Assembly (NCBI RefSeq): GCF_000026545.1
Contig: NC_011601.1
Origin: Escherichia coli O127:H6 str. E2348/69
GTDB taxonomy: Bacteria; Pseudomonadota; Gammaproteobacteria; Enterobacterales; Enterobacteriaceae
Strand: one strand, 5' to 3'
Length of the DNA: 64,000 nt
Within the stretch, counting starts at the first letter, position 1, and each line of letters opens with the position of its first letter. A program made the position numbers and the translations under genes. Positions 7,986 through 9,551 of this stretch are shown here, piece after piece. A model generated the notes under the pieces. That model saw only the letters and a program-made list of their open reading frames with translations. It did no database searches and was not told the DNA's origin.

Positions 7986-7993
7986 TGCATGGG
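7986..7993. repeat. target-site duplication TGCATGGG (left copy)
   Basis: Identical 8-mer immediately flanks both IS termini. Confidence 0.8.
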
Positions 7994-8012
7994 CTGTCTC
8001 TTGATCAGATCT
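7994..8012. repeat. IS terminal inverted repeat, inside-end type
   Basis: CTGTCTCTTGATCAGATCT; contains GATC Dam sites; the transposase stop codon lies inside it. Confidence 0.8.
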
Positions 8013-9378
8013 CCTGATCAAGAGACTTCATCACCAGGTAACCCTCAACCATATCCTGAAGTCTGAACCAGCCATCCCACATGACTACCCAACCGGGGCG
8101 ACCGGTGCGTTTGCTGTCATGCCATCGCCCCAGTTTCGCCAGTTTCAGACAGGCCCATTTCAGTGTCGGCATCTGTGACGGAAGCGGTTTTCCTTCCAGC
8201 TTAACCCACAGCAGTTTCCACTCTGTCGGCGTCAGTATTTTCTCACAGCTGTCATTTTGTGTTTCTTCACTGATACCGCCCTGCCGCAGGCCCAGCACCC
8301 GCACCGCGATAAACGCCTTGATAACCACCATGCGCTCGAGGTTATCCCGGGTCTGCATTCGCAGCGATTCCACACATGTACCACCACTTTTCCACGCCTT
8401 GTGGTATTCCTCTATCAGCCAGCGTCGCTCGTAATGGCTGACGATACGTCGCGCATCGGCGGCACTCGCCACTTTTTCTGACGTCAGCAGATGCCAGCAG
8501 GCGCCGTCCTCTGCCTGCTCCCGGCAACAGACATACGTGAGCGGGAGCGCCTGGCCGCTGTTGTCGGGATTTTTTATGCTGACTTCGCTGTAACTGATGA
8601 ACATCCGGGCCTGGCGGGCTGCCCGCCCGCCTTTTTGCATCACATTCAGCGTGTGGCTTCCCGCGGTTGCCAGGACTTCCGGCAGTTCGAAGAGCTTGCC
8701 GGGTGCTTCTTCCAGCCGGCGATTCTGTGCTGCACGCACCACGAAGCGCTGCCCGTGGCTGACTTTATAATGCAGGTAATGCCAGATATCCGCTTCCCGG
8801 TCACAGACAGTGATTACCCGTTTCTGTATCTCCCCCAGCCGTTCGGCCATGCGCTCCGAAGCCTGCTGCCAGCGGTAACTTTCTTTTTCTTCATAGGGAC
8901 GTTCTTTTCGCTGGTGCTTAACACCGTAGGTGTCCGTGGCACGACTCCAGCGCTGCTGTTCGATAAGACCGACTGGCAGGGCGCTGTCGGGGGCGTACAT
9001 CAGGACAGAGTGAGCCAGCAGCCCGCGCGTCTTCGGGTTAGTGGTGGTATTCCCCAGGTCATCAGATGCCGTACTGTGACTGAAGTTAATGGTGGTGGTG
9101 TCTTCCAGCGCGAGGAGCAGCGGATGAGCCTCACATGCCCTTACAGTGGCGGTAAATCCGGCTTCGGCAATGGCTTGCGGGGACACAGACGGGTTACGTA
9201 TCAGGCGGTACGCACCTTCAACCTGAGCAGTGGACTGGGATGATTTCACAATAGAAAGACCTGCATGCTGAGCGAGAGAAGAGGCCAGTGACACAAGGCG
9301 TCGTGTACGACGCGGATCACCGAGACGGGCATGTCCAAACTGCTCGTTAGCCCATGAATAACAATCAGAAAGTACCAT
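8005..9378 (-). CDS. IS4-family DDE transposase (Tn5 Tnp homolog)
   Basis: 457-aa ORF; conserved blocks [27 protein letters not shown] and [17 protein letters not shown] correspond to the Tn5 transposase catalytic D/D/E and YREK regions. Confidence 0.9.
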
Positions 9379-9524
9379 AACAGACCCGAAGAAAATGAAA
9401 TATAAGAGAAGATCAACGGGTGAGGAAAAAGTTCAAAAAATCGCTGCCGGGGAGGAAGGAAACTACCGGATGGAAAGAGTCCCCCTAAAGCAGACTGACA
9501 GACATCACAAATCCCCGGGTGGGG

Positions 9525-9543
9525 ATTTGTGTATAAGAGACAG
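9525..9543. repeat. IS terminal inverted repeat, outside-end type
   Basis: Reverse complement CTGTCTCTTATACACAAAT; contains a DnaA-box-like TTATACACA. Confidence 0.8.
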
Positions 9544-9551
9544 TGCATGGG
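9544..9551. repeat. target-site duplication TGCATGGG (right copy)
   Basis: Identical to the 8-mer at 7986..7993. Confidence 0.8.

Follow-up and report, generated by a model that had tools for sequence, protein, structure and literature searches.

A full-length ISEc13 copy inside dgoD of Escherichia coli E2348/69 and the target sites of ISEc13 and its marine relatives

An insertion sequence within dgoD

The DNA analysed here is a 64-kb window (64,000 nucleotides; all coordinates below are positions within it) of the genome of Escherichia coli O127:H6 str. E2348/69 (contig NC_011601.1), in which an insertion sequence of exactly 1550 bp (7994..9543, by sequence inspection and script) lies inside dgoD, the D-galactonate dehydratase gene of the dgo operon. 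A first-pass annotation made from the letters alone had placed the element at these coordinates and described it as co-oriented with dgoRKADT. Both statements hold: dgoR, dgoK, dgoA, the two dgoD pieces, dgoT and the transposase gene are all on the minus strand. The features of the locus are the following (ORF, open reading frame).

7623..7993, minus strand: 3' fragment of dgoD, codons ~260-382, including His285 and Glu310 (ORF list, RefSeq)
7986..7993: target-site duplication, copy 1, TGCATGGG on the plus strand and CCCATGCA in the transposase orientation (sequence and script)
7994..8012, plus strand: inside-end-type 19-bp terminus CTGTCTCTTGATCAGATCT, unique in the window, 19/19 to the IS50 inside end
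7996..8026: subterminal hairpin with a 13-bp stem and a 5-nt loop, in which inside-end bases 3-15 pair with their inverted copy
8005..9378, minus strand: ISEc13 transposase gene, 457 aa plus stop, the sole long ORF within the element
9379..9524, minus strand: untranslated 5' leader of 146 nt, reaching from the 19-bp terminus to the ATG
9430..9493, minus strand: second leader hairpin (9444..9493) followed by GATTTTTTGAACT (9430..9442), from the fold and the leaders of 23 relatives
9506..9531, minus strand: subterminal hairpin CACAAATCCCC-ACCC-GGGGATTTGTG, overlapping the outside-end-type terminus
9525..9543, minus strand: outside-end-type 19-bp terminus CTGTCTCTTATACACAAAT, unique in the window, matching the IS50 outside end at 17/19 positions
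9544..9551: target-site duplication, copy 2, TGCATGGG (sequence and script)
9544..10329, minus strand: 5' fragment of dgoD, codons 1-262 (ORF list, RefSeq)

The element starts with CTGTCTCTTGATCAGATCT on the plus strand and finishes with the letters ...ATTTGTGTATAAGAGACAG, and it is bordered on both sides by the perfect 8-bp direct repeat TGCATGGG seen in the first pass. A 9-bp, Tn5-like duplication was considered for this copy and rejected: the repeat stops at 8 bp, since the bases that adjoin its two copies differ at either border (C/G and C/A). Each 19-mer end is found once in the window with three mismatches permitted (chance expectation 0.01-0.02), and the two ends both begin CTGTCTCTT, with 9/9 first bases in common. 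When compared to a real IS50 copy (L122), the inside-end-type terminus is identical at 19/19 positions, and the other terminus agrees with the outside end at 17/19 and with the synthetic mosaic end at 17/19 (the outside- and mosaic-end sequences are printed in PMC2566895), as the first-pass annotation had stated. Terminal repeats that start 5'-NT are a trait of the IS10 and IS50 subgroups (PMC2266710), and those of the element start in this way. The inside-end terminus also contains two GATC (Dam) sites and the transposase stop codon.

In-silico excision of the element together with one copy of the repeat gives a dgoD ORF of 1149 nt, whose 382-aa product exactly matches the intact 'galactonate dehydratase' found on 264 contigs; the insertion is therefore the only lesion of the gene, as had been proposed. 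In RefSeq, the two pieces are named 'galactonate dehydratase, missing C-terminus' (the 5' fragment, whose ORF continues into the element to give 274 aa and ends at 9505) and 'enolase C-terminal domain-like protein, missing N-terminus' (the 3' fragment). The reconstructed DgoD contains D183, H185, E209, E235, D258, H285 and E310, which we take to be the catalytic positions of this enolase-superfamily enzyme in E. coli, His285 presumably being the general base. Since the duplication spans codons 260-262, between Asp258 and His285/Glu310, these residues are split between the two fragments, neither of which is likely to be a working enzyme; DgoD activity should therefore be lost, and with it the use of D-galactonate by the strain.

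Transposase, identity and copies of the element

The 457-aa protein encoded by the element is clearly homologous to the Tn5 transposase. It aligns with the solved Tn5 transposase structures over residues 6-453 (E=6e-84), is 39% identical to the Tn5 transposase, contains the Pfam domains PF14706 Tnp_DNA_bind (E=3e-19), PF01609 DDE_Tnp_1 (E=5e-7) and PF02281 Dimer_Tnp_Tn5 (E=1e-4), and scores 514 bits with the NCBIfam IS4 model NF033590 (cut-off 160). D93, D193 and E323 align to Tn5 D97, D188 and E326, with spacings of 100 and 130 that fall within the IS4-family range D(60~110)D(100~150)E (PMC2266710). The Y(2)R(3)E(6)K signature is complete as well (Y316/R319/E323/K330, aligned to Tn5 Y319/R322/E326/K333), so that the single, diverged Tn5-like transposase with conserved DDE and YREK residues described in the first pass is confirmed. 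A duplication of about one helical turn (8 bp at dgoD) likewise fits the IS50 subgroup. By homology to the Tn5 transposase, the element would move by cut-and-paste via a DNA hairpin intermediate. No obvious counterpart of the Tn5 inhibitor start Met56 was found, there being no Met at residues 2 to 126 of the protein; Met56 aligns to a Phe.

The likeness to IS50/Tn5 thus covers the overall layout (a single transposase that binds DNA through its N-terminal domain, has a DDE/YREK catalytic core and dimerises through its C-terminal domain; two non-identical 19-bp ends, the inside end carrying GATC sites and the stop codon in the context ATC TGA). By contrast, outside the ends the DNA common to the two elements amounts to three short patches, and the protein identity is far from the high value that IS50 proper would require. 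The two elements further differ in that ISEc13 has strong subterminal hairpins at both ends, no Met at the inhibitor start position, a strict palindromic target motif where Tn5 has a weak consensus, and a duplication of mostly 8 bp (see below), compared to 9 bp for Tn5 (Goryshin 1998, as cited in PMC1525189).

The element is ISEc13, which agrees with the first-pass view of a distinct IS50-group member rather than Tn5. Indeed, its 1550 bp are found at 100% identity in another E2348/69 assembly (NZ_CP059840.2) under a coding sequence annotated 'IS4-like element ISEc13 family transposase', window positions 1994..15543 being an exact substring of that record (yidE-ibpAB-dgo-gyrB region), and the exact protein is WP_000244358.1 / UniRef Q0H069 'ISEc13 transposase', present on 426 contigs. 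The name thus comes from two proxies, the RefSeq product name on an identical locus and the UniRef name of the exact protein, rather than from the ISfinder entry. At the DNA level, the element is 100% or 99.9% identical to sequences that carry the ISEc13 annotation in numerous E. coli genomes. Since the element is already catalogued and the pseudogene already annotated, there is nothing new at the level of the element; what is specific to the present copy is its site in dgoD, which is confined to the E2348/69 lineage. ISEc13 is not mentioned in the supplement text of 'IS4 family goes genomic' that was searched.

The first-pass annotation had also suggested counting the copies. Among 5426 complete E. 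coli genomes searched by megablast, 873 contain full-length ISEc13 and 2991 contain partial matches; the E2348/69 chromosome has 30 places that match the element, with 2 more on pMAR2, which is the per-genome maximum in this collection. Twelve close copies compared at other sites differ from the dgoD copy by 0-2 bases, and two more distant variant copies by 28-29 bases. This looks like a recent expansion of ISEc13 in the E2348/69 lineage, with dgoD as one casualty. A 200-bp probe over the dgoD/element junction was fully covered in 3 of the 5426 genomes, at 100% identity, and all three are separately deposited E2348/69 or O127:H6 assemblies; the junction is therefore no assembly artefact.

Several other ISEc13 copies depart from the standard arrangement. 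Many E. coli plasmids carry an internally deleted derivative of ~960 bp that retains both ends (H29-H55); in the copy on plasmid p504838_108 (L123, ~1820..2773), which is ~954 bp long, ~590 bp of the transposase gene are gone. This derivative is the probable source of the partial match in many of those 2991 genomes and could be a non-autonomous element mobilised in trans. Some plasmid matches appeared to include 17 bp of dgoD flank, as if the flank had been co-mobilised; alignment led us to discard this idea, as these are deleted ISEc13 copies whose flank merely resembles the target motif. In CP148541.1, two inverted copies at about 2.305 Mb and 2.366 Mb (L008 and L009) have swapped duplication halves, CGAACCAG lying to the left of one copy and to the right of the other and CTCCCCAA the opposite, which indicates a ~60-kb inversion by recombination between them. 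The inside ends of L003, L005 and L008 read CTGTCTCTTGATCAGATTT instead of ...AGATCT, with the loss of one GATC (Dam) site. Several copies have no target duplication, among them L094, L108 (pMAR2, finO-hok) and L107 (E2348/69 variety 2, where the copy truncates a fructose phosphotransferase system IIA gene, now a pseudogene); this suggests adjacent deletions or recombination between copies.

Target sites of ISEc13 and of its marine relatives

To characterize the sites used by ISEc13, we examined other copies with their flanks: 10 from one genome, 13 from viral or prophage contigs and 16 from other complete genomes, with 27 unique full sites (labels L002-L011 and L093-L121). A duplication is present at 22 of these 27 sites (8 bp at 16, 9 bp at 5 and 7 bp at 1). 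The 8-bp duplication at dgoD is thus the norm for ISEc13, because 16 of the 22 scored copies carry one. The flanks follow the pattern CCCC(T/C)-duplication-(A/G)GGGG at 18 independent loci, and four bases are invariant (18/18): counted from the duplication, C at positions -4 and -2, and G at positions +2 and +4. The sites lie mostly just past gene ends, commonly in the gap between two convergent genes or downstream of a tRNA. When folded, most empty sites form strong, terminator-like hairpins: random 32-mers set the background, and 16 of the 22 sites with a duplication reach its 5th percentile or lie below it. The same hairpin has been struck in both orientations (L007/L098 and L002/L102) and with both 8- and 9-bp staggers (L004/L113 and L106/L115), and these repeated strikes therefore favour true hot spots over mere survival bias.

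The dgoD site, ATCTCT-CCCATGCA-GGCGGT (7980..7999 and 9538..9557), carries all four invariant bases and ranks 59th of 124,844 window positions scored with a flank matrix derived from the 18 other loci, dgoD being excluded. The gene would thus have been struck because it happens to contain a passable motif. A literature search, which did not cover ISfinder, returned no description of an ISEc13 target preference, only that of the REP-targeting ISRm22 (REP, repetitive extragenic palindromic sequence) and of unrelated families; the preference of ISEc13 for this motif and for terminator-like hairpins may be new.

Relatives of the element were sought with an exact search, in one genome per bacterial species, for the 23-mer CTGTCTCTTATACACAAATCCCC, which comprises the outside-end-type terminus and CCCC. 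It was found in 81 stretches (L012-L092), none of them enterobacterial, the hosts being Vibrio, Photobacterium, Shewanella, Alishewanella, Neiella, Aliagarivorans, Rheinheimera and Aeromonas, and it is identical in the IS50-group elements of at least 18 marine gammaproteobacterial genomes. These elements are 1480-1503 bp long, share the 19-bp end CTGTCTCTTATACACAAAT and encode transposases about 50% identical to that of ISEc13. In Photobacterium profundum SS9, an IS50-group element has been shown experimentally to be active and is present in 48 copies (PMC8174602); it may be the element of stretch L074.

In all 23 distinct leaders of these relatives, the 19-bp end is followed directly by a GC hairpin and then by ATTTTTTTGAAC(T), and the stems covary (AAGC/GCTT, GAAC/GTTC, CGT/ACG, AGT/ACT). 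The module is an inward-facing intrinsic terminator, which in the simplest reading would protect against read-in transcription. The 9430..9493 segment of ISEc13 is, by its predicted fold, an inward-facing terminator-like module and the counterpart of the relatives' hairpin, T-run and GAACT. Both subterminal hairpins of ISEc13 are strong: the one at 7996..8026 folds at -21.3 kcal/mol (z = -4.7) and the one at 9506..9531 at -22.1 kcal/mol (z = -5.5), with 0 of 200 shuffles equally stable in either case. The marine relatives have a hairpin equivalent to the inside-end one, GTCTCTTGA...TCAAGAGAC. A simple scan of 7400..9800 returned 8 terminator-like hairpins, compared to 2.7 +/- 1.6 in shuffled sequences; five of the eight are inside the element and antisense to the transposase gene (plus strand, 8458..8875), for example GGCGGGCTGCCCGCCCGCC-TTTTTG at 8613.

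The flanks of the relatives resemble terminators too. Of 77 distinct left flanks, 60 have an A-run (-28..-10) with a G/C-rich stem and then an A/T-rich loop after it, an arrangement seen at 7.5% of random positions. The four sites for which both flanks and a duplication are available (L015, L052, L087 and L088) are all hairpins, and an A- or T-run adjoins three of these. The whole clade therefore appears to insert in the loops of rho-independent terminators, with a marked orientation bias in the relatives. We considered the idea that the terminator at the outside end replaces the host terminator split by the insertion; it finds no support in the relatives, where the A-run is on the outside-end side (60/77), and the host transcript that loses its terminator would therefore enter via the inside end.

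Symmetric G/C-tract targets are known for other IS4-family elements, namely GGGG(N6-7)CCCC for IS186 and GGG(N)5CCC for IS231A. As in ISEc13, the tracts are about one helical turn apart; these elements nevertheless belong to other subgroups, and the polarity is reversed, since in ISEc13 the CCCC tract precedes the duplication on the left and the GGGG tract follows it on the right. Homing to hairpins also has precedents: IS1397, ISKpn1 and IS621 target REP sequences, and class C group II introns insert after intrinsic terminators. ISEc13 resembles them in that most of its insertions fall into intergenic palindromes able to form hairpins at gene ends, where they do the host little harm. It differs from the REP-homing elements in that its targets are unique terminator-like hairpins and not a repeated family, from both groups in relying on DDE cut-and-paste rather than on DEDD recombination or retrohoming, and from hairpin-homing elements at large in that it also uses non-hairpin sites such as dgoD. 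Within the IS4 family, ISRm22 inserts in REPs (PMC1525189).

From these observations, ISEc13 and the marine clade might together form a previously undescribed, target-specific branch of Tn5/IS50, characterized by a near-'mosaic' end followed by a covarying terminator, by insertion at the apex of terminator-like hairpins and, for ISEc13, by the target CCCC(T)-N8-(A)GGGG with its four invariant bases. We put this forward tentatively and would, if pressed, lean slightly against it. If true, this would be a naturally occurring transposase of the Tn5 type whose choice of target is genuinely specific for sequence or structure.

Probable origin of the dgoD insertion and its predicted consequences

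Taken together, the data make us confident that a full-length, apparently active ISEc13 (IS4 family, IS50 subgroup) moved by cut-and-paste into codons 260-262 of dgoD in the E2348/69 lineage. By homology to Tn5, the transposase would recognise the two slightly different 19-bp ends, the target would be cut with an 8-bp stagger and joined to the element, and gap repair would leave the TGCATGGG duplication; the choice of the site was non-random, dgoD carrying the C at -4/-2 and the G at +2/+4 found at every other ISEc13 site examined. The effect on the operon can be predicted from the leader. A dgo transcript would enter the element via the outside-end side and meet the first hairpin (9506..9531), then the second with its T-run (9430..9493), where transcription would probably stop, lowering the expression of dgoT.

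A few observations weigh against this scenario or parts of it. The dgoD site has no hairpin potential (-4.0 kcal/mol, the background median), unlike most ISEc13 sites, and it mismatches the target motif at +3; the invariant bases, rather than a hairpin, seem to be the minimum target requirement. A simple scan of 7400..9800 found no sigma-70-like promoter, so that expression of the transposase is assumed from the copy number. The polarity on dgoT may be partial, since transcripts of the transposase gene could read into dgoT, the exit-side hairpin having no T-run. Finally, a literature search found no link between E2348/69 and dgoD or galactonate.

Other accounts of the locus were considered. 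Given an inside end identical to that of IS50 and another end whose first 16 bases are those of the mosaic end of commercial kits, one may ask whether the element is Tn5/IS50 itself, introduced by laboratory transposon mutagenesis or from a tagmentation reagent. However, the low transposase identity, the three short patches of common DNA outside the ends, the length (1550 bp vs 1534) and the lack of resistance genes, together with the presence of ~30 copies in this genome and of full-length copies in 873 genomes under the name ISEc13, make such an origin practically inconceivable. Multi-copy insertion sequences commonly cause misassembly, and the junctions could in principle be a chimera, a repeat having been collapsed into a continuous dgoD. 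This too has a negligible probability, given that both junctions carry a matching 8-bp duplication with the length and motif typical of ISEc13, and that the same junction is found at 100% identity in three separately deposited complete genomes.

The remaining accounts accept the insertion of ISEc13 and differ as to its present state or the reason for its persistence. The dgoD copy could be a dead relic, immobile and merely persisting, in keeping with the internally deleted ~960-bp derivatives common on E. coli plasmids; this is very improbable, since both ends are intact, the full-length ORF encodes the most common ISEc13 protein and the copy differs by 0-2 bases from 12 copies elsewhere. Alternatively, the insertion would be no neutral accident and would have been kept because the loss or rewiring of dgo is advantageous in a pathogen, for instance through element-driven expression of dgoT: the element is in the orientation of the operon, lies directly upstream of dgoT with a downstream hairpin devoid of a T-run, and is fixed in all three assemblies of the lineage. 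We give this a slim chance, as the simple scan detected no outward promoter, and the restriction of the insertion to a single lineage, one exceptionally rich in ISEc13, fits drift during the expansion of the element.

The dgoD insertion has little import beyond strain bookkeeping: it is an ordinary knock-out already present in public annotation, which explains why the prototype enteropathogenic E. coli strain E2348/69 should fail to use D-galactonate. It also belongs to the set of about 30 insertions that mark the expansion of ISEc13 in this lineage. A practical consequence may arise from the 9525..9543 end, the first 16 bases of which are the Tn5 mosaic-end / Nextera adapter sequence: adapter trimmers could clip genuine reads across ISEc13-type junctions in E. 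coli, Vibrio, Shewanella and related genomes. The Tn5 transposase became a workhorse of genomics partly through its near-random insertion. A Tn5 relative that has the same inside end and a near-mosaic outside end, and is yet palindrome-specific, would be a handy system for the study of target selection by Tn5-type transpososomes.

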